A stretch of DNA of 64,000 nt from positions 1,860,001 through 1,924,000 of the forward strand of contig ML978127.1 in assembly GCA_010015805.1 (NCBI GenBank). Reading direction: 5' to 3'. The position numbers and the translations under genes were made by a program. Below the pieces are notes generated by a model. That model had not been told where the DNA came from. It ran no database searches and worked only from the letters and a program-made list of their open reading frames with translations. Source of the DNA: Rhizodiscina lignyota. Its lineage: Eukaryota. Shown one piece after another: positions 28,273 through 39,499 of this stretch; position 1 is the stretch's first letter, and every line of letters begins with the position of its first letter.

Positions 28273-30067
28273 ATGGCGTTGACAGCTCGCGCTCCATCGT
28301 TCACGGACTCCTCTACCAGCCCGAGTACGTTGCTCTATTTGTTCCGCATATGACGTTGCTTTAGGGGGCCAGTGCGTGCTAACTACGAAGCGAGCAGAGA
28401 AACGCGAGGAGGTAGAAGAGCTGCTGCAGAAGCTCCGCATCGACCTCGAGGAGACTAACCTTTTGCCTCTTCGTAAGTAGTTCTCACGCGACACTCCCTA
28501 TACACCGCAACCCCGTGACGTCCCTCGATGCTGCGCAAAGGTTGACACGCGACACACCAGAGCGGACGGCTTCCCTGGAACAATTAAAGGTCTTCAGCCG
28601 GGATGTGAAGGATGCAGATGCTTTATACACTCGAGAGGTTCGTGGAGGTTGAATCCTGAGACGAAGACAACTGAGGCTCACGTTGGCGACTCAGGCAATT
28701 GAGACCTTGGGAAAGCACAGCTTCGACAGCAATTCCCTGTCCACCTCACGCGAGGCCCTACGATGTCTCGCCAATATATTCCTCTTGAATCCTCCTACAC
28801 GGCAAATGTTTGTAGACTTGGGTTTTGGTCCCAAGGCTGCAGAACGTTTGAAGGTCGACAATCGCGATGACGAGTTCCTGGTCTCCCGCATACTCTTTCT
28901 CATGACCTACAACACGAACTTGAATTTCGAAAAACTCGTCAATGACAATCAATTAGCCGATAGTATCAATCAGGTATGCTAGAGGCCTGACTTTCGTGTG
29001 TGCGATGTCTGACAGCCCGCAACGTAGAATATCACGCGTCATTCTAAACGATACTCGAAGACCAGTCGAAAATCATCCACTCCTGATCCAATGAACGCCA
29101 TGGCACTGGCTGAAACGCTCAAGCTCATGTTCAACATCAATCACTTCTACCCTGATCTCGCCGGGACGTTCTTAAAATCCTTGACACCGCTCCTCAAGAT
29201 GCTACATCGGACCAAAATCACAAGTCCAGCTCTCCAGCCGCCTGTGAATTACATCATCAATGCTCTCACGAATCTCGACTTCGAAGACAAGCGTTGCGGA
29301 CCGCTCAGCATTAGCCCGCTGTTCCCAAAGTTTGATCAGACAGCCAACGCGGACCATCTCATACACATACTCGGTCGGGTGGTAGATGACTATAAAGATT
29401 CTGAGCTTGATGCATCAGCCTCTCCGGTACTGGCATTAGTACGGAAAGTCTACGAGATTGCGCCTGAGAATGTGCGGAAGTACATGGAATCGCTGCTCCT
29501 TCCCTCGGACGAGGAACGCAGCTTGGTTCTTGGAAAATCAGACACACTCGCTGCAAAGCTTCTCCGTCTCTCTACATCACCGATGCTCCCTAACCTCCGA
29601 ACATCGATCCAAGCGATGATGTTTGAGCTGTCTGGGAAGGATGCGAGCAAGTTCGTGAGGAATGTTGGCTACGGCTTTGCATCTGGCTTCTTAATGAGCA
29701 ACGGCATCTCAATACCAGCCAACGCCATGGAAGCATATAGCAACGGGGACAGCAGCAGCAGCACCAGGGCGAGCACGAGCACTGAGCACGCAAGTTCTGA
29801 CAGCAATTTCCCTATCAATCCAATCACTGGCCAGAGGCTTGATGCTGAGGCAGAAGTGAAGGATGATCGCCCACCAATGACAGACGAGGAGAAGGAAAGA
29901 GAAGCAGAACGTCTGTTTGTTCTATTTGAGAGGTTTGTGATCCTTCCAGCAAGACGTTGCTTTGATTTTGACGCATCTGTAGGTTGAAAGCGACCGGCAT
30001 CATGGATGTCGAGAACCCCGTACGCACAGCAGTGGAGTCTGGGCGCATCGAAGAATTGCCAGATTGA
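28273..30067 (+). CDS. RIC8: Ric8/synembryn G-alpha guanine nucleotide exchange factor/chaperone, multi-exon
   Basis: REALRCLANIFLL, DEFLVSRILFLMTY, ETLKLMFNI, FVRNVGYGFASGFL, INPITGQ, MTDEEKEREAERLFVLFERL, ENPV...GRIEELPD*. Start exon inferred. Confidence 0.93.
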
Positions 30068-30547: not shown

Positions 30548-32873
30548 ATGGCTGAGGACACGCCTCCGCAGCAGCGGAGTAACATGTCGCTCGTGCCATA
30601 CATTCAAAGCGATTCTCAAGCAATAGTTCTGTAAGGCACTCTGAACTATATATAACCTTCCTTCTATGGAGCAATACTAATCTCGAGTCACTGTGTCTAG
30701 CCGCCACGGTTCTGCTGTTGTGCTTTACGACCATCAGTCGCGTCAAATCTCACTCGGTCGCGACTCGTCATACACATCTCCCTCTGCGCAGAGCTCCGCG
30801 CTCTCGCACGCCCGCTGTCCCACATGTCACCGTCCATATCACGACGAATTCGACCATGACCTCGATCCTGCGACAGATGATCAGCAGGAAGCCACCTTCA
30901 CAGACCCAGACTACTTCCAGCTCCTCCACCGAAGCCTTCCACAGTCCCAAACTTCCACTCGACCACCATCTCCGGGACGACAATCCCCAAGAAGAAGACT
31001 ACCGCTTGCTGCAGCTGCGACTGATGAAGAGGATGAACAGAACAGCAGGCCAACGAGAGCGGTGAGCGAAGGAGCGACATTGAGACCTCCAGCTGGAGCG
31101 GAATTCATAGGCAGTGCTCCCGATCCGAGCGACACCACTGCTCAGGGTATATCAGCACAAGCCTTCTCGCCCAACTACTTCCGGCGGTTCTTCATCGTAG
31201 AGCGCGAGCTCGGTCGCGGCGGTAAGGGCGTCGTCTTCCTAGTCAAGCACATCTTGGACGATGTCTTCCTTGGACGCTTCGCATGCAAGCGCGTCCCAGT
31301 CGGCAACGATCATGAATGGCTTAAGAAAGTGCTGGTTGAGGTACAGCTGCTCACGAATCTCGCTCATCCGAACCTCGTGCAGTATAAACATGTCTGGCTT
31401 GAAGACTACCAGATCAGTAATTTCGGGCCCAGCGTGCCGTGCGCATTTATACTGCAGCAGTACTGCAATGCGGGCGATTTGCATAACTATATGCTCGATT
31501 CTGCAAGGACGAAAACTACGACGCAGCAACTGAAGGACAGAATGCGACGCCGCTCCAAGGGCCAGCCGGAGCCGCCTCATGATCTGACAGGCCCAAGGCG
31601 AATGCATTTCGAGGAAATATTTTCCTTCTTCAAGGACATTACAGCTGGCTTGCACCATCTTCATGCTAACGGCTATATACATCGTGACCTTAAACCCAGC
31701 AACTGCTTGCTCCACCGCAATGAGACTGGACACATTCGAGTCCTAGTCAGCGACTTCGGCGAAGTACAAGTCGTTTCTGCTACTCGCAGAAGTACTGGAG
31801 GCACCGGCACCATCAGCTACTGTGCACCAGAAGTACTACGTCGTGATCCAGTAAGCGGCGGCCTCGGCAACTTCAGCACGAAGAGCGACATCTTCAGTCT
31901 AGGTATGATCGTGTACTTTATGTGTTTTGGACGGTTACCATACAAAAGTGCGGATCAGCTGGCAGAAGAGAACGAAGATATCGAACAGCTTCGCGCAGAG
32001 ATCGCCGCGTGGGTTGGCTTCGATGACCACCAGAAGCAACGTACAGACCTTCCGGACCGGCTATACAAATTTCTCAGGCGCTTGCTTTCCCTCGATCCGA
32101 ACGAACGTCCCAGCACGGACGATATCCTTCAGAATATTGGCGGGGGTAACGACATCGACGATGCGGGCATATCCGCGTCCGTTCCACATCTCTTCGACGA
32201 CATAAAGTCGCGATTCTCTAGTCTTGACAGCCCGAGTCCCACTCCGCAGCGGATGCAATCAGAAAGACGAAACTCTGCTCTGCAGCTTGGTAACAATGGC
32301 AGCCCTGTCCACCACAAGCGCCAACAGTCGTCACGATTGCGACCGACTTCGCCAACGAAATCCATTCGTCGAGAAGATAATGATCCGCACAAGGCTTATG
32401 TTGAAGATAGTGACGAGGATGTTTTCTCAGACGCACAAATGGACAGCAGTGTCATTCTACGCGCTCGAAAAGCTGAGCGAGGTAACGCGTCAGCTCCAGG
32501 CTCTCCCACTAGATCTCCTCAGCGACTTCTGCTCCCTCCACCGCCGACGCTCTCGACAAGAATAGCTCGCTTCTTCTCCGACTCGTTCAATATAGGCGCA
32601 CTAAAAGTACTGCTATTCGTCATCAAATTCCTCTCGTTACTCCAGCCCTGCGCTCCGTACGCCCCGAAGGCGATCCTTCTATACCCACTCCTCGCGCTTG
32701 GTGCACTGGACTTTGTTCTGCTACCATATGGCTATACACATTCTGAGCATGGGCATGGCGGGCAGGACTTGCAGATTTCTGGAACTCTCCTGCTTGTGCA
32801 TTTGGGCGTCATTTTACTTGCTGGCTGGTGGGACAACTTGTGTCCTACACGGCCAGAGATGTCTTGGGGCTAG
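30548..32873 (+). CDS. IKS1: IKS-family Ser/Thr protein kinase with C-terminal hydrophobic segments
   Basis: Exon 1 (MAEDT...MSLVPYIQSDSQAIVL), intron 30631-30700, then RHGSAVVLYD, CPTC, LGRGGKGVV, FACKRVPVG, HRDLKPSN, DFGE, GTISYCAPE, SDIFSLG. Confidence 0.88.
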
Positions 32874-34190
32874 GACCAGATCCAACTGGAGTTCTTCGTA
32901 ATGGCTGGCTTCCTGGTATTTGCATTGCGACACAGTATACAGAAGCGGTTCATGAGTTTATGCTTGATGAGTTGACGTCTATACCACCGACTGTAATAAT
33001 AGGCCACAAAAGTACGTAGTTGATCGTATCTATATGGAAGTTGCTTTGTATGTAGTCATATCTTCGTGTCTAACTAGCCCCAATCTCCTTTGTGCAATGA
33101 CTCTTCTCGCGAAACCGCAGAGTGTTGTCGTTGACTGTCACGTCGTGCGCCGCCCTCGGGGTCTCGACAAATCGGACACGCTCGACCGTCCTCTTGTCAT
33201 CATCCTCACCCTCTTCATTCTCTGCCCCTTCTGATGGGCTCGGCAAACTACTCGCAATTTGAACCAAGTCTCTCTCTTCTCCACTTCCCTACCTTTCAAC
33301 TCCAGCGTCGAACCAAAAGTCGCCATTTTCGCCTTGGCAAAGTTGTTCGCTCTCGAAGTACTTGAAGTATGGTGCCAGTTTAACTCGGCACGACTAGAAA
33401 TCTTTATTTCTACGGCTGTGAGATTATAGAATTCGCATTAAATGGTCTCAATATCAGTCGTATCGTTACTGGTTGTGGATTCTCGACATACAAACGTCCT
33501 CTTTTCTGATTGGCCCACTCTCGCGTCCATTTTGGGAATACCCCTGTCAGTTTGAGAACCTCATGCTTCACTCGAATACACCATGGTCCGAAGAATGAGC
33601 CAAAACACTCAAGCGTATATATTTTGCGCCACCTTGAAGCACTGAGCAAACAGTGCCTGTTGAGAGTGTACTAGAAACTTCTCAAAACTGAAGCCACGTT
33701 GGCGCCCTGGCGACCATGCACCCAAATAAAGGTCCCATTCACAGTGACTTCGCATAGATGGAAATCCACGGCAATGAGGCGCCACAGCGCTTGTGAGTCG
33801 CGCATATGATGTCTACACAGACGGCCTCCCGCGAAGTTTCGCAGTTGTGATGTCACGAACCGCCGTTCGCCCCAAAGTGGGCCTCCCCATTCTCACCACC
33901 AGAACCTCTTTGACCAGAGCCCAAATACCAATTCTCGCTTTCACATCCGGCTCCTCCCTTATGTTGCATGGATGAGGCTTGCTGTTGTTGTTATGGTGCC
34001 TTGGTTCTCGCCCTCGCGTGAGTTCGCCGCAGGTATTCACCACCCACCACGAGCATTGTTGAAACGCGCTAACGAGCTGTCACCACGCGTATCCGATTGT
34101 AACCTCAATTTCCACGGGCAGATACGGCTGTCACAGACAACGCCGCCGTACCCAATCTCCCCGAAGTTTGCCCGGCCCCAATCTCAAGAG

Positions 34191-34198
34191 TATTTATA
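34191..34198 (+). promoter_or_regulatory. TATA-like element (TATTTATA) upstream of the structured ncRNA
   Basis: TATTTATA followed by a long pyrimidine-rich tract typical of fungal Pol II start regions; no credible protein ORF follows. Confidence 0.4.
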
Positions 34199-34229
34199 CT
34201 TCTCTTCCCTCCATCTTTCTTACAACTCT

Positions 34230-36261
34230 TTCCGCCTCCACAAAGTGCCCCCGCCACCAAAGTCTTTCCACACCCTTTCTCTCCCCTTCCCAACCAAAAC
34301 ATATCATGTACCCTTCTTCCCTTACTCTTCCTCTCCTAACAAAAAACACATTGTACTTTCCTTCACTTGTTAATCATTGTTGTTGACAATCGCGTCTTGT
34401 TTTCATGTTTATCGCGTCACCCTCCTCCACCACAACATCATCACCACCTTATACATGTTGTCACTTCACTATCCTTCACCAGACAACATCATCACCACCT
34501 CTTGCATGTTGACGCTTCACTCCCCTTCACCACAACAATATCATAGCCGCCTCTTGCTTATCACCGCTACTCTTCAAACTTCAAACACCTTGTATCACTC
34601 GCACACATTCATGCCTTCCCCAACAATGCTCTTTCTCATGTTGTCGTTGATCAATAACACTTATGTTTTTCTTTGCTGTTTCTCCGAATCAACTTGCTAA
34701 CCCTTGATTTCTCAGGCAACATCCAATCTCATCTTGCTCAAGCTCTCGCTCGCAGAGGCCGTCCACCCTGCTTTCCGCTCGTCGCATCAACCATCAAGAC
34801 ACATTCACTGACTTCACCAACCAGATCGAGTCAACTTGCCAGGATCAGAGGCTGGGGGAGGACCAAGCCTGGCCTCGTCCGGGAGGGCCCCGTCCGGGGG
34901 GTACTTGCTCGCAAGGCGCTGCAGATCGGTCCGCCGGTTTGCAGGTCTATGCGTTGCAATTGCCTTGTGCAGTGCCGCTGGCCTGCGACAATTGACAGTT
35001 CACAGTGTTAGTCCGACACTGTGAGCTGAGATGCGTGTGCCACTACCACGGTCACAAACCAGTCTACCAGAAATTGAAGGCTACCGTGCCCAAATTCGTC
35101 CGGAAACGGCTTGTTTGGGATCCGGGTCTGCCATCGTGCTTACTACGGGTGAAACGTAACAGACTTGTCTGTAGCTGGGGTCACTGCTTGCATACCCGCT
35201 GCGCACTCTCCGTGGACTCAGCCGGCAGACCTGGGTGGTATCTGACATAGGCAAGCCATTTAGCGGAATGGCAAATCCGAGCCTGTTGCAAGACGCATCG
35301 CGTGCGGGTGGCCGAACCAGAGAAGGGCCGGAGGCAGCCCAGCGATAGGGGATGACAGGAGCGGATCCTCGACCTGTGCTGGAGTCTAACCGATGGTACA
35401 CACTCAGAGCTCGGAGGCCATAGACCCGTTGGAGAGCGCAATTGAGGATCCGGGGTCCTCGGGCTGGGTAGACGCCCAGGGGGCAGTGGTCGCCAGCCGC
35501 ATTAGGAGGATGGGTTTTGGGGGGGTGGTGAGCTTCGGCCGAAGCAACTGTAAGACTCCCTTTCCTGTTTGCACTCACCTCTTCCCAGCGGCCTCTGCGA
35601 CTTGAGCTTGAGCAAACGATGACCACGAACTTGATGCCTGGGTGCATCCCCTTTTTTTCATTTCGACTTCTGCCTTGTGCGGGAGCTTGACGAAGAATGA
35701 GAGTTTGGTCGACTCGGTTGGCGAGGTTTAAATATGGAATATCCATGGTGTTGAGTTTTTTCGTATCGGATATGCCACACCCACTAGGGTTACATAGCTG
35801 CTTTCTGTGTGCCATTGCATCTAGATTAAATCAGACGAGACTCGGGTCACGATCAATATTTAGTAGATCATGTTCTGGATCATGAATCCCTCTGTTGTGA
35901 TGTTGAGAATACTGAGAGACGTGAGAGCTGACGTAGTCCGATGCGCGTCACGGTCTACGGAGCAACGGCATTTCCAGGATTCCAAAGTTAGAAAGAGTGA
36001 TGTATAGACTGAAGTTTCCCAACCCTTCTGTCCCTGATGCTAGAGACCTGTCACTTTAAATGCACTTGCAACGTGCCCGACAGCTTGATGGTGAAAGATC
36101 AACGCGCGTGTCAATCCTCGCTTCTCAAGCATGGCACCAAGTCAATCGCGACTCAACAACAAATTCTTCGTTCGGCTTGAAGGTTCACGTTTGAATAATG
36201 TGCATAGTTCATCGTCCTGGCTGTAAGAGACGACACGACGTTGTCGCTCGCCTGCACTTAC
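34230..36261 (+). ncRNA. Large structured non-coding RNA, candidate telomerase RNA (TER/TR); ends approximate
   Basis: CTAACCCT at 34697-34704; perfect helices 34734-34745/35604-35615 and 34750-34761/35589-35600; many internal hairpins whose G-U pairs point to the + strand; U7 tract and candidate pseudoknot 35644-35703; ATAAGT at 36262. The structured RNA itself is well supported, the telomerase identity only moderately. Confidence 0.6.
34428..34557. repeat. Degenerate tandem repeat, ~51-bp period, ~2.5 copies
   Basis: CAACATCATCACCACCT...CATGTTG...CTTCACT..CCTTCACCA starts at 34433 and 34484, with a partial third copy at ~34536. Confidence 0.8.
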
Positions 36262-37289
36262 ATAAGTTCGCGGCGCCTGGCCTTCGGCTTCTTTGCCTGT
36301 TGCGGCATAGCGAGCAGCAAGCTCACTCCTCGCAGAGCGCCTTCAGCACTGGCTTCGGTTCTTTTGCGTAGAAGGTAATGTGGATTCTCTGATCGCTACG
36401 ATTGAACATTGCGCTAATCTTTCCATGCTAGACTCTCTGATCGTCTAGAGTCCAATGTCAACCTAACAAAATTGCCCTCGACGCGCTCCGCATTCCCAGC
36501 TTCACATACATCCTCGCGCGACGCGCTATCACCATGCCTGGATAATCGATTCCTTCCCCACATGCCAGGAATACAGTCCATATCTGAAACAGTGAGGCCA
36601 GATAGTGGCAATAGTGTGGTGACGGATACATATGAATCTGTAGAGGGCAAGGGCGCTTCGTGAGAGAATCTGAAGAGCTCGATACGGATGTTCAGGCCAA
36701 AATCCATGCCATTGAATTCTCATGTCCCTATTTCGAGGCCCTTCCTGTTCGTTCAATGTCGGAATAGGCCCAATCGCTGTATATTCTCGCCAAAATGACA
36801 TCATGCTCACATCTGTTCTTGTCAGATCACCATGCTCCGAAATGATCATTCACCGCAGTACCAATGCGCTAGTATGAAAGATGTCGATCAATACTCGCCC
36901 AAACTTGCTCGCTCTGTGTTCGACAGGTCGAAGAATCACGTACGGGCGCTAAGTTGAAGCGGTGCCACAGGTCAAGCAGTCTTCTCTGTGTATTTGCACC
37001 ACCGCAACACCGACACCACATGGATCAGACTATGCTCGTATTGGCGCAACATCGATGTGTGCCCTTAGTTGTGCTCAGCTACAGCTTAATACATAGCTCG
37101 GCGAATATGGAGATGTGACACAGTGTAGCTTTCAAGAGCGATAAATACGACGAAATGGTGACACCACCATCAGTACTTCTTCGTAATTACTGCTTAGGAG
37201 ATGGCTATATATACCAAGGTATGCCTCGCTCCCGAGTCTCCAAGTCATCGTTAGACCCACTCTTGAAAACGTCCATCAATCCGTCCACA

Positions 37290-37732
37290 ATGTTGACAAA
37301 GGTCAGGCAGTCCTCATTCTTCGTGGAGCGTGCACACTGATCCCTCGGACACAGATCCTCTACCCACTCCTCCTCGCTGGAGCTTCCCTTTCCGCTGAAG
37401 CTGCTACTTTCGAATCGCTCAGTACCCGTGACACCTGCACACGATTATTCGGCGTCGCCACCTTCTCCAACACCAAATGCCTTGGCAATGGCACTCCTAA
37501 GGTCGTCGGGTGGAACGGTAACGTGGCGGTCAATGTGTGTCAGCAGAACCAGGCGGCATTTAGCAGTGCAATCGGTATACAGCTCGGGCCTTCGAAGGAT
37601 GGATGCGTCCTGAGCGCGTATTCGGACACGAAATGCGCGACAAAGGCCTTGTCGCAGACAGGTAGCCTGCTGACAGCAAGCAATTGTGTGACTGCCGCAA
37701 GCAAAAGCTACAAAATTACCTGCGCAAAGTGA
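37290..37732 (+). CDS. Small secreted cysteine-rich protein (129 aa, effector-like)
   Basis: Exon 1 37290-37301 (MLTK), intron 37302-37354 (GTCAGG...CTGAT...CAG), exon 2 ILYPLLLAGASLSAEAA (signal-peptide-like)...ITCAK*; 7 Cys; TATATA at ~37207. Confidence 0.8.
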
Positions 37733-37857
37733 GCTCAGCTACAAACACAAGTTCAACCGCAAGTGGAAGCTGAAGTAGGTGGTTCTCAGAGCAATGAGTA
37801 ATCTCGAAACTAGGGTCATTTAATTCTCCTCCGAGTAATAGCTTGTCATGCTGTTCG

Positions 37858-39499
37858 TTACAGATCTTCGTGAATGTGTGGTATGCCTTGTCGGTCTCGA
37901 ATCTTCTCTCCTCTGAACCACAACCACAGTAGCGGGAAAATCGTCAGCCCATTTATCATGCCGAGCACCGGGAATGAGATATTCCAGCCTGAGTGCTCTC
38001 CAAACGGAACCGCATAAAAGCCAATATTGAAGGCGAAAACTATCAAAACATCAGCATCTTTGGATTTCGTCTCCAAGCACCAGCTGCACATACCAGACTT
38101 GTAGAGATTGATGACAGCGCCAATCTCCGCTGACTGCGGCTTGTAGCAATCAGTCGTGTACGTATATACCATGGTCGCGCCAGTCTGCAATCCGAATCCA
38201 GCCACACCCATGCAAACTGCAAGTGTAATCCACGGCTTCTTGGCTTCGACACAAGGGCCATATGCAATGACGCCCGCCAGTAACGTCAAGCAACCAGGAA
38301 GAAGTGCCAACCGAATCTCCGGTTTGCGGTACCCGCCATTCCTCTTCGCGTACGCGTTGATGATCAGATCACTCACCCATCCTGCGCTCGCCTCGCCGAT
38401 CATGCAGCCTATTGTTAGCGGAACGCCCATGAGCAGCCCTGTCTGTGCGACGTTGAAGTGGTAGAGCTCGGCCGCCAGGTGCGAACCGGTTACTGCGAAG
38501 AGAGCGCTGCCATACGTGTTGGCAGTCATCCAGTATATCGATGGAAGAGACACTGCCCAGTACTTGATCATGCGGTATGGAGTGATGAAGTCACGAAGGG
38601 TGATCCGACGGTCGACTATCTTGCCCTTCCAGCCGAGCTTCGAGATGTACGAGGTTCCTTCCAGCGTACTGAAGTCCGTGCGAGAGAAGAGCGTTTCCGG
38701 GAAAGTGAAGAGCAGGATGAAGAGCAATCCGCCTTGTAGGATCCCGGGTATGTAAAAGCACCATCGCCAACTGAGATTTTGCGCAATGTAGCCTCCAATA
38801 ATTGGCGCTAGATGGGGTCCGTTGTTTACACACAACCTGATGGGGTACGTCAGCGTCACAGTAGAAGCAGAGGGATTTTGGGGATTTGCAAAACAGGAGA
38901 CTGACGTATATATTCCCATGTACAGTCCACGTTCACCCTGAGTGAAAAGATCGCAAATGGTCGCAGCACCAATTCCTAAGGGGATTCCACCTCCGATACC
39001 ATAGAAGACACGTCCAGTGATCACGCCGCCATAAGTCGCCGCGGCGCCCGATCCAATCTGAGCAGCCACAGCGATGGTCGTGAAGAAGATGTACAAGATC
39101 CTACGGCCGTACACGTTGGAATATGGCACGATGAACATGGGAAAGATGCCGCTGAACAGAATGTATACTGTCGTGCAATAGCTTGCCTGTGCTTATGGTC
39201 ATCAGAAGAAATGGCGCAGAATTCTCACCACTCACTTGCTCGACTGTGATATGGAGGTCCTTAGACATAATCACGTACGCCGGATTGATGAGAGCTGAGC
39301 CCATCTGAGCGAGGAACCCAAGGCCAGACACCATAAGGGCGATGTAGACTTTTCCCCAATACGGCCAGTTAAGAGGGTCATCTTCGTGGTCCGAAGGCTG
39401 AGGGTCCAAAGGGATGCCATTGCGGTCGAGCTTCAACCTGGGGCCCTTGTGCACCTCTTCAACTTGATCGACCTTTTCCGTGTCAATTTTCTCAGACAT
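37858..39499 (-). CDS. MFS transporter, multi-exon
   Basis: PQPSDHEDDPLNWP N-terminal motif, YGRRILY (motif A), ICDLFTQGERG, SWRWCFY, PETLF, KPEIRL; multiple hydrophobic segments. Confidence 0.92.

Follow-up and report, generated by a model that had tools for sequence, protein, structure and literature searches.

What is the long-range structure at positions 34711-35642 of a 64,000-nucleotide stretch of the Rhizodiscina lignyota genome (contig ML978127.1, positions 1,860,001 to 1,924,000; hereafter the window), and if it belongs to a functional RNA, to which one? An earlier reading of this DNA, made from the letters alone, had described an RNA domain of ~900 nt closed by two perfect 12-bp helices, and had raised telomerase RNA (TER) as its identity. 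We find that the locus carries a non-random helical clamp, present in a single copy and free of coding potential, together with telomerase-like motifs at characteristic spacings. Its most likely and most economical identity is TER, which is not proven, and we tentatively propose, judging from sequence features, a TER gene of ~2 kb on the + strand in which the domain forms the large arm next to the template. Coordinates refer to the window throughout, and features lie on its + strand unless stated otherwise.

The clamp is built from four blocks of pairing. An inverted-repeat search recovered both core helices of the sequence-only reading, 34734-45 / 35604-15 and 34750-61 / 35589-600, each a perfect inverted pair of 12 nt with 100% complementarity; the two are nested, and the 4x3 loop between them sets TCGC (34746-49) opposite CTT (35601-03). 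Both proposed extensions are also present, with TCATC/GATGA (34729-33 / 35618-22) lengthening the clamp outwards and the outermost block, CTCAGGCA/TGCCTGGG (34711-18 / 35635-42), containing one U-G pair. The composite helix thus amounts to ~37 bp over 34711-61 / 35589-35642, with unlike loops of 4x3 and 10x12 between blocks. Written as RNA, the 5' arm (34711..34761) consists of CUCAGGCA (34711-18), UCAUC (34729-33), UUGCUCAAGCUC (34734-45) and UCGCAGAGGCCG (34750-61), and the 3' arm (35589..35642) of CGGCCUCUGCGA (35589-600), GAGCUUGAGCAA (35604-15), GAUGA (35618-22) and UGCCUGGG (35635-42). A partition-function calculation over 34300-36261 gives 23 core pairs out of 24 a probability of at least 0.97 and the remaining one 0.69, with 0.65-1.0 for the outer blocks. 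Since all 24 core pairs are Watson-Crick, with zero G-U, the core is uninformative on the strand.

The clamp is beyond chance. When the domain was shuffled 300 times with its dinucleotide content kept, no shuffle had two perfect stems of at least 12 bp (shuffle mean 0.037). Single perfect 12-mers are not special here, the window holding 8 perfect inverted repeats of at least 12 nt within 2 kb against ~7.6 expected by our own arithmetic, but a nested, adjacent double occurs only in this pair. Folding of shuffled sequences on both strands, a check that the sequence-only reading had called for, separated the two strands: the whole domain (GC 0.589) has a minimum free energy (MFE) of -404.9 kcal/mol on the + strand, with z -4.87 (0/20 shuffles as good) and, in a second shuffle set, z -4.45 (0/132), compared with weak values on the - strand of z -2.13 (1/20 as good) and -1.71 (3/125). 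When MFE was regressed on GC content, the + strand domain was the strongest outlier, at z -2.74, the best of 98 comparison folds (49 windows on both strands) reaching -1.57. The raw difference in MFE between the strands of the domain, 37.6 kcal/mol, is ordinary in the window, where the standard deviation is 28.

How much of this signal lies inside the clamp is a separate matter. The GC-rich interior of 827 nt (34762..35588) is multi-branched in fold predictions; folded alone, it has z -1.38 on the + strand, with 2 of 20 shuffles folding as well, and z +1.18 on the - strand, with 18 of 20 as good. Because the interior alone reaches only z -1.38, the clamp must supply most of the domain's stability signal; the ~900-nt multi-branched domain is therefore solid in its closing helix, whereas its interior is not clearly above shuffles. 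The named inner stems are all present in the + strand sequence. They comprise a 14-bp hairpin (34996-35009/35015-28) with 2 U-G pairs, a 13-bp stem (35120-32/35224-36) with 2 G-U pairs, an 11-bp hairpin (34919-44) with 2 G-U pairs and a UCCG loop, and the GCCATT/AATGGC and GCTTC/GAAGC stems; CTGGGT/GCCCAG, however, is seen by reading the sequence only and does not form in the MFE fold. The fold adds a gapped arm of 13 bp with 3 G-U pairs (35518-31/35575-87) and, among its best interior stems, those at 35102-07 (CCG-GAAA-CGG) and 35255-72.

Two ways of counting these stems gave different answers on strand. Ungapped stems of at least 9 bp, with up to two transition mismatches allowed, number 34 in the domain versus 35.2 +/- 6.0 in 200 shuffles, and their mismatches, 30 G-U versus 24 A-C, show no strand bias; nor does a Watson-Crick-only fold, with 13 G-U versus 9 A-C in 1x1 loops and at helix ends. 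Long stems, in contrast, are in excess: five reach at least 12 bp, compared with a shuffle mean of 1.13, a count attained by 1 of 300 shuffles, and the five imperfect stems of at least 11 bp carry 7 G-U versus 1 A-C transition mismatches (p ~0.045, an estimate). The earlier statement that most non-Watson-Crick positions are G-U on the + strand consequently holds for the long stems (7:1) and not for the unbiased tallies. Hairpin caps with UCCG, GAAA and CUUG loops occur on the + strand and none of them on the - strand. The + strand is favoured, only moderately. Selection at the level of RNA structure, as the sequence-only reading had inferred, is plausible and partly supported, with the non-random clamp, the single copy, the + strand z-scores and the G-U pairs of the long stems speaking for it and the weak interior and even tallies against it. 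Moreover, the arms match only in blocks split by unlike loops, which is unlike a decaying DNA repeat.

The locus itself does not look like a mobile element or a gene for a protein. Compared at a likeness of at least 80% with the 34.2 Mb of contigs in the one public run that contains it, which may be the source of the window, 34000-37000 is covered by one contig with no differences, and no direct repeat flanks either possible pair of ends (34711/35642 or 34734/35615) as a target-site duplication would; the copy-number check suggested for a miniature inverted-repeat transposable element (MITE) thus returned a single-copy locus. Look-alikes elsewhere are limited to 35652-35697, just beyond the clamp, and lie on three other contigs with 4-6 differing letters. 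This 45-nt piece, which folds locally into a U7 tract followed by the hairpin CUUCUGC-CUUGU-GCGGGAG, seems to be either a short dispersed repeat or part of a repeated element; two of its three look-alikes lie at contig ends and have upstream sequence in common. The region is non-coding and contains no credible open reading frame (ORF): none of the 11 ORFs between 33972 and 36849 matches Pfam, a 112-aa + strand ORF gave no match in a protein-relative search, and a 244-aa - strand ORF found one match among 1.84 billion representatives, itself a translated tandem repeat.

It is what surrounds the clamp that points to telomerase. The 8-mer CTAACCCT (34697..34704), which amounts to 1.33 repeats of CCCTAA, ends 6 nt ahead of the clamp, and as RNA, CUAACCCU, it fits a TTAGGG telomere repeat. 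The same 8-nt word, CUAACCCU, is the template of mouse telomerase. The mouse template is described as shortened in the available excerpts of Qi et al. 2013 (PMC3592445). In a local fold of 34600-34710 (MFE -7.8, z +0.67) the word is unpaired, and a candidate template boundary helix of 6 bp, GUUGAU/AUCAAC (34646-51 / 34688-93), ends 3 nt before it. That a helix of ~37 bp begins 6 nt after the template word is as expected of a TER from the Pezizomycotina, with equivalence to the named helices being our own assignment. We also observed CUUG on both sides of the word, in the arrangement CUUG-CUAACC-CUUG within 34693-34706 (repeats at 34693-96 and 34703-06); were both copies to serve as alignment repeats, the encoded telomere repeat would be 10 nt long, the complement of CUUGCUAACC, instead of TTAGGG.

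Further candidate TER features lie on either side. Downstream, AUAAGU (36262-67) lies 1,565 nt past the template word and is followed by the branch site GCGCUAAUC (CTAAT at 36414-18) and UAG (36429-31), forming an intron-like putative 3'-end processing signal over 36262..36431. Between clamp and signal, a candidate P6/P6.1-like pair of hairpins (35687..35725) has the form UUGAC.AAG/UUU.GUCGA, adjoined by CUCG-GUUGG-CGAG (35713-25) with its 4-bp stem and 5-nt NUNGN loop; locally its MFE structure has a frequency of 0.55 and z -0.77. Upstream, a TATA-like TATTTATA (34191..34198), noted in reading the sequence ~500 nt before the template-like word, is possibly an RNA polymerase II (Pol II) promoter element with a start near 34240-34290. 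The 5' part also contains a 51-nt tandem repeat of 2.4 copies (34419..34544; Tandem Repeats Finder, 80% matches, score 161) in a G-poor stretch, neighbouring copies of which pair (AUGUUGUC/GACAACAU) into nested 8-bp hairpins, and the fold of 34400-34549 has z -3.69 with 0/200 shuffles as good. A transcript from ~34250 to 36261 would measure ~2.0 kb, inside the published TER range of 1.58-2.43 kb.

The comparison with published fungal TERs makes this arrangement more specific. The excerpts of Qi et al. 2013 (PMC3592445) assign the Neurospora crassa TER a template with its boundary element, a pseudoknot, a P5/P6/P6.1 junction and two long-range core-enclosing helices; for activity, a template-pseudoknot fragment of nt 225-1515 is the minimum, and in it tetraloops stand in for nt 256-433 and nt 463-1288. 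Nucleotides 463-1288 are thus a helix-closed, dispensable insertion of 826 nt (PMC3592445), and as the piece kept before the insertion is only nt 434-462, the N. crassa template appears to lie just upstream of it. At our locus, likewise, a TTAGGG-type template-like word precedes a helix closing ~830 nt (827 nt here, 826 nt there), in a non-coding filamentous-ascomycete locus of ~2 kb with an AUAAGU-type 3' signal and long-range helices of the core-enclosing kind that would bring distant parts beside the template. The clamp may correspond to 'core-enclosing helix 2' or to the arm helix, a mapping based on the text of those excerpts only.

According to the excerpts of the Aspergillus studies, the 3'-end signal there combines AUA(A/C)GU, a branch site and a 3' splice site (PMC4299874, PMC3603654), and spliceosomal cleavage is described for all known filamentous-fungal TERs (excerpts of PMC4993307). 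Sizes given in the excerpted papers are 2,049 nt for N. crassa, 1,584-2,130 nt for Aspergilli and 2,425 nt for M. graminicola (PMC3592445, PMC3603654). There are differences, too: our locus has no detectable sequence or Rfam similarity to the N. crassa RNA, its candidate template is 8 nt long (CUAACCCU) where that of N. crassa is UAACCCUAA, and we found here no pseudoknot, no stable boundary helix and no clean three-way junction. The excerpts of Qi et al. (PMC3592445) report no Est1- or Ku-like sites in the N. crassa TER. Like the Est1 arm of budding and fission yeast TERs, the domain would be a flexible scaffold outside the catalytic core, although it is ~five times longer and multi-branched.

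A substantial set of results weighs against identifying the locus with TER, beginning with the template. The word CTAACCCT doubles as an intron branch site look-alike, GCTAAC, with CAG downstream at 34713-15; CCCUAA, kept in 13 of 13 Aspergillus templates, is missing from it; and the window holds 9 template-like 8-mers where ~11.7 are expected, so that at this chance density only the position of CUAACCCU counts. The boundary-helix candidate is only 6 bp long and unstable, in a local fold whose z is positive, and the 2-kb MFE fold pairs the template region with the P6.1 candidate. The trio of 3' signals has an estimated chance probability of ~0.08, and no U-rich Sm-like tract was found ahead of AUAAGU. 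A scan of 34000-37000 for the P6.1-like pattern yielded 3 matches versus an estimated ~2 expected, A35712, which should be free ahead of P6.1, takes part in a pair when the region is folded locally, and no clear P5 was found that would complete a three-way junction.

The remaining points concern the pseudoknot, the general level of structure and the search for relatives. By eye, no pseudoknot with U-A.U triples was convincing: there are U tracts at 35652-58 and 35756-61 and U-rich stretches near 35515-18 and 35561-70, and reading the sequence found neither a downstream run of at least 4 A nor a consistent H-type pairing. Of several partial pairings seen, none of them convincing, GUUUGC (35568-73) with GCAAAC (35612-17) was rejected as it clashes with the clamp. 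The 619 nt after the clamp have z +0.85 and no excess structure. In blastn, 33000-37800 had no match at E<=0.05 in 80 metagenome loci carrying an iks1-like kinase, the set used for the orthologue search. The Rfam scan that the sequence-only reading had recommended returned no match at gathering score in the whole window, and at E<=5 in 33500-37000 it gave two weak matches, neither to telomerase, the presence of a filamentous-fungal model in Rfam 15 being unconfirmed.

Our confidence in TER stays short of an even chance because of these chance-level words, the weak boundary helix and the lack of a defined pseudoknot and of an Rfam match. We nevertheless favour it: besides the position of the word, the N. 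crassa precedent, the 3' signal, the size and the P6.1-like hairpin, the locus is single-copy and non-coding, sits in a 4.3-kb gap, belongs to a Pezizomycotina host and is biased towards the + strand. As a working model, Pol II would start near 34250, downstream of the TATA-like box, and the repeat hairpins would lie in the 5' region of the transcript. The word CUAACCCU (34697-34704) would be held single-stranded as the template, and the helix of ~37 bp, 6 nt further on, would clamp ~830 nt of mostly dispensable scaffold, thereby bringing the following parts, a pseudoknot and a P6/P6.1-like element binding the telomerase reverse transcriptase (TERT), back beside the template. The 3' end would arise from first-step spliceosomal cleavage at AUAAGU (36262). 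Transcription, the template role, the pseudoknot, TERT binding and 3' cleavage are all steps that we infer.

Among the alternatives, the one that survives best, although we consider it doubtful, is that the + strand encodes a different structured non-coding RNA of unknown kind, its ends clamped by the 37-bp helix, with the telomerase-like words being coincidental. Such a clamp would serve to shield the ends or to tie a scaffold together, and the RNA could be ~0.95 kb long and end at the U7 tract, or be an exon of a spliced long non-coding RNA after GCUAAC...CAG (34695-34715). Non-randomness of the clamp and the + strand bias would suit it as well as they suit TER, a terminal stem followed by U7 (35652-58) resembles RNAs with paired ends, GCTAACCCTTGATTTCTCAG makes a good 3' end for a fungal intron, with GTGAGT at 34018, and flanks without a TER-like structure signal, together with the missing Rfam telomerase match, are what it would lead one to expect. 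However, no known family fits, with 0 Rfam matches; no CR-I or CR-V motif of RNase P/MRP RNA and no B box was found; the 650 nt ahead of the branch-site look-alike contain no good 5' splice site; and neither a TATA nor an RNA polymerase III (Pol III) promoter element stands directly before 34711. The interior, moreover, is not significantly structured, and the TER-like spacing of template, clamp and AUAAGU would be left unexplained. In its most specific form, a stand-alone RNA of ~0.95 kb of a kind undescribed in fungi, with the four-block 37-bp end lock and U7 and with no relation to telomerase, to RNase P/MRP or to an Rfam family, we regard this proposal as improbable.

An unlikely explanation, weighed against the same data, is an inverted repeat at the level of DNA that has no function as RNA, possibly the remnant of a small inverted duplication or of a single-copy, degenerate insertion of the foldback or MITE-like type, in which the inner stems would be what any 830 nt of GC-rich sequence yields. 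The 24/24 Watson-Crick core pairs resemble those of a young DNA repeat, the interior z-scores (-1.38 on the + strand, +1.18 on the - strand), the stems of at least 9 bp at the shuffle mean (34 vs 35.2) with a G-U:A-C ratio of 30:24, and a strand gap of 37.6 kcal/mol against a window standard deviation of 28 are all as it would have them, and the adjoining 45-nt piece looks like part of a dispersed repeat. As in a MITE or foldback transposon, two inverted arms of ~28-50 nt surround ~830 bp without an ORF. Yet the sequence is single-copy at 80% likeness or more in the 34.2 Mb, no direct repeats flank either possible end, and there is neither a transposase nor any other ORF match. The arms agree in four blocks only, with wholly unlike loops between them and a U-G pair in the outer block, and long stems are in excess (5 vs 1.13, 1/300 shuffles) and G-U-biased (7:1), the interior carrying extra ones, with the + strand domain being the strongest GC-corrected MFE outlier (-2.74 vs -1.57).

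A functional RNA on the - strand is very improbable. It could be, for example, a TER with the template UAACCCUA (35792-35785) ending at a - strand AUAAGU (34664-34659); its template-like 8-mer, TAACCCTA at 35785..35792, lies 143 nt upstream of the domain on that strand and is no branch-site look-alike, AUAAGU comes only 47 nt past the domain, and the Watson-Crick clamp is equally good on either strand. Against this, the - strand z-scores are only -2.13 and -1.71, with +1.18 for the interior, no CTRAY branch site occurs in the 660 nt after AUAAGU, the 8-mer lies inside a local ACCC/GGGU hairpin, the G-U pairs of the long stems become C-A mismatches and the hairpins have no special tetraloops.

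The other candidates were rejected. RNase P/MRP RNA was discarded as CR-I (GNAANNUCNGNG) and CR-V are absent from both strands of 34001-36500 and Rfam has no match; a search for Pol III boxes found no B box and one loose A-box match at 35261. The zipper stems of long yeast introns are long-range helices that shorten the effective distance between two functional RNA sites, but here the clamp has no usable 5' splice site ahead of it and no branch site closely following it. For a MITE or other non-autonomous transposon, the locus lacks dispersed copies and a target-site duplication, and for a protein-coding gene it lacks an ORF with a domain or real relatives.

Returning to the locus, the domain sits in an intergenic gap of ~4.3 kb between an iks1-like kinase gene (30693-32873) and, on the other side, a putative small gene with an apparent promoter ahead of it and a start near 37290, as judged by reading the sequence, beyond which lies an MFS transporter gene (37858-39138, - strand). 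In 37200-37732 we observed a TATA-like box near 37205, followed by an ORF that begins hydrophobic, contains several cysteines and seems to be interrupted by an intron, which looks like a + strand gene for a small secreted protein. A short - strand ORF at 33070-33326, with its ATG at 33326, is convergent with the kinase and had no tblastn match in the 80 metagenome loci. The best named relatives of the kinase come from Dothideomycetes and allied ascomycetes at ~54% identity, and the host is therefore a Pezizomycotina fungus of a thinly sampled lineage; the two closest relatives of the kinase are the proteins P0002 and P0003, at 81% and 61% identity.

The same 80 kinase loci share only chance words of 11-13 nt with the region, and synteny downstream of the kinase is not kept among them. 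The sole syntenic neighbour is a 319-aa ORF upstream of the kinase (29028-29987), with 16 hits, which neighbours the kinase in L001, L002, L022, L032, L046-L053 and others; it often lies on the other side of the kinase and on the opposite strand, a sign that small stretches of DNA are often inverted in these fungi. Near the kinase, L058-L060, L046-L051, L010/L011, L020 and L023 contain template-like words, which were examined and rejected, the candidate in L059 because it continues into apparently protein-coding sequence. In L020 (~3867) and L023 (~12381, - strand), which come from two distant relatives, there are telomere-repeat-like words of 12-13 nt, AACCCTAACCCT, less than 350 nt from the kinase gene, and we did not take these as TER templates because the transcript would overlap that gene.

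The present evidence for either an RNA of unknown kind or a TER comes from sequence. If the locus is not a TER, it is an unannotated, end-clamped candidate for a long RNA. If it is, it would supply the telomerase RNA of a Dothideomycete-like lineage that has been little sampled and, N. crassa being the first, a second case in which an insertion of ~830 nt is clamped directly behind the template, and would thereby help to define the shared features of the giant arms in filamentous-fungal TERs.

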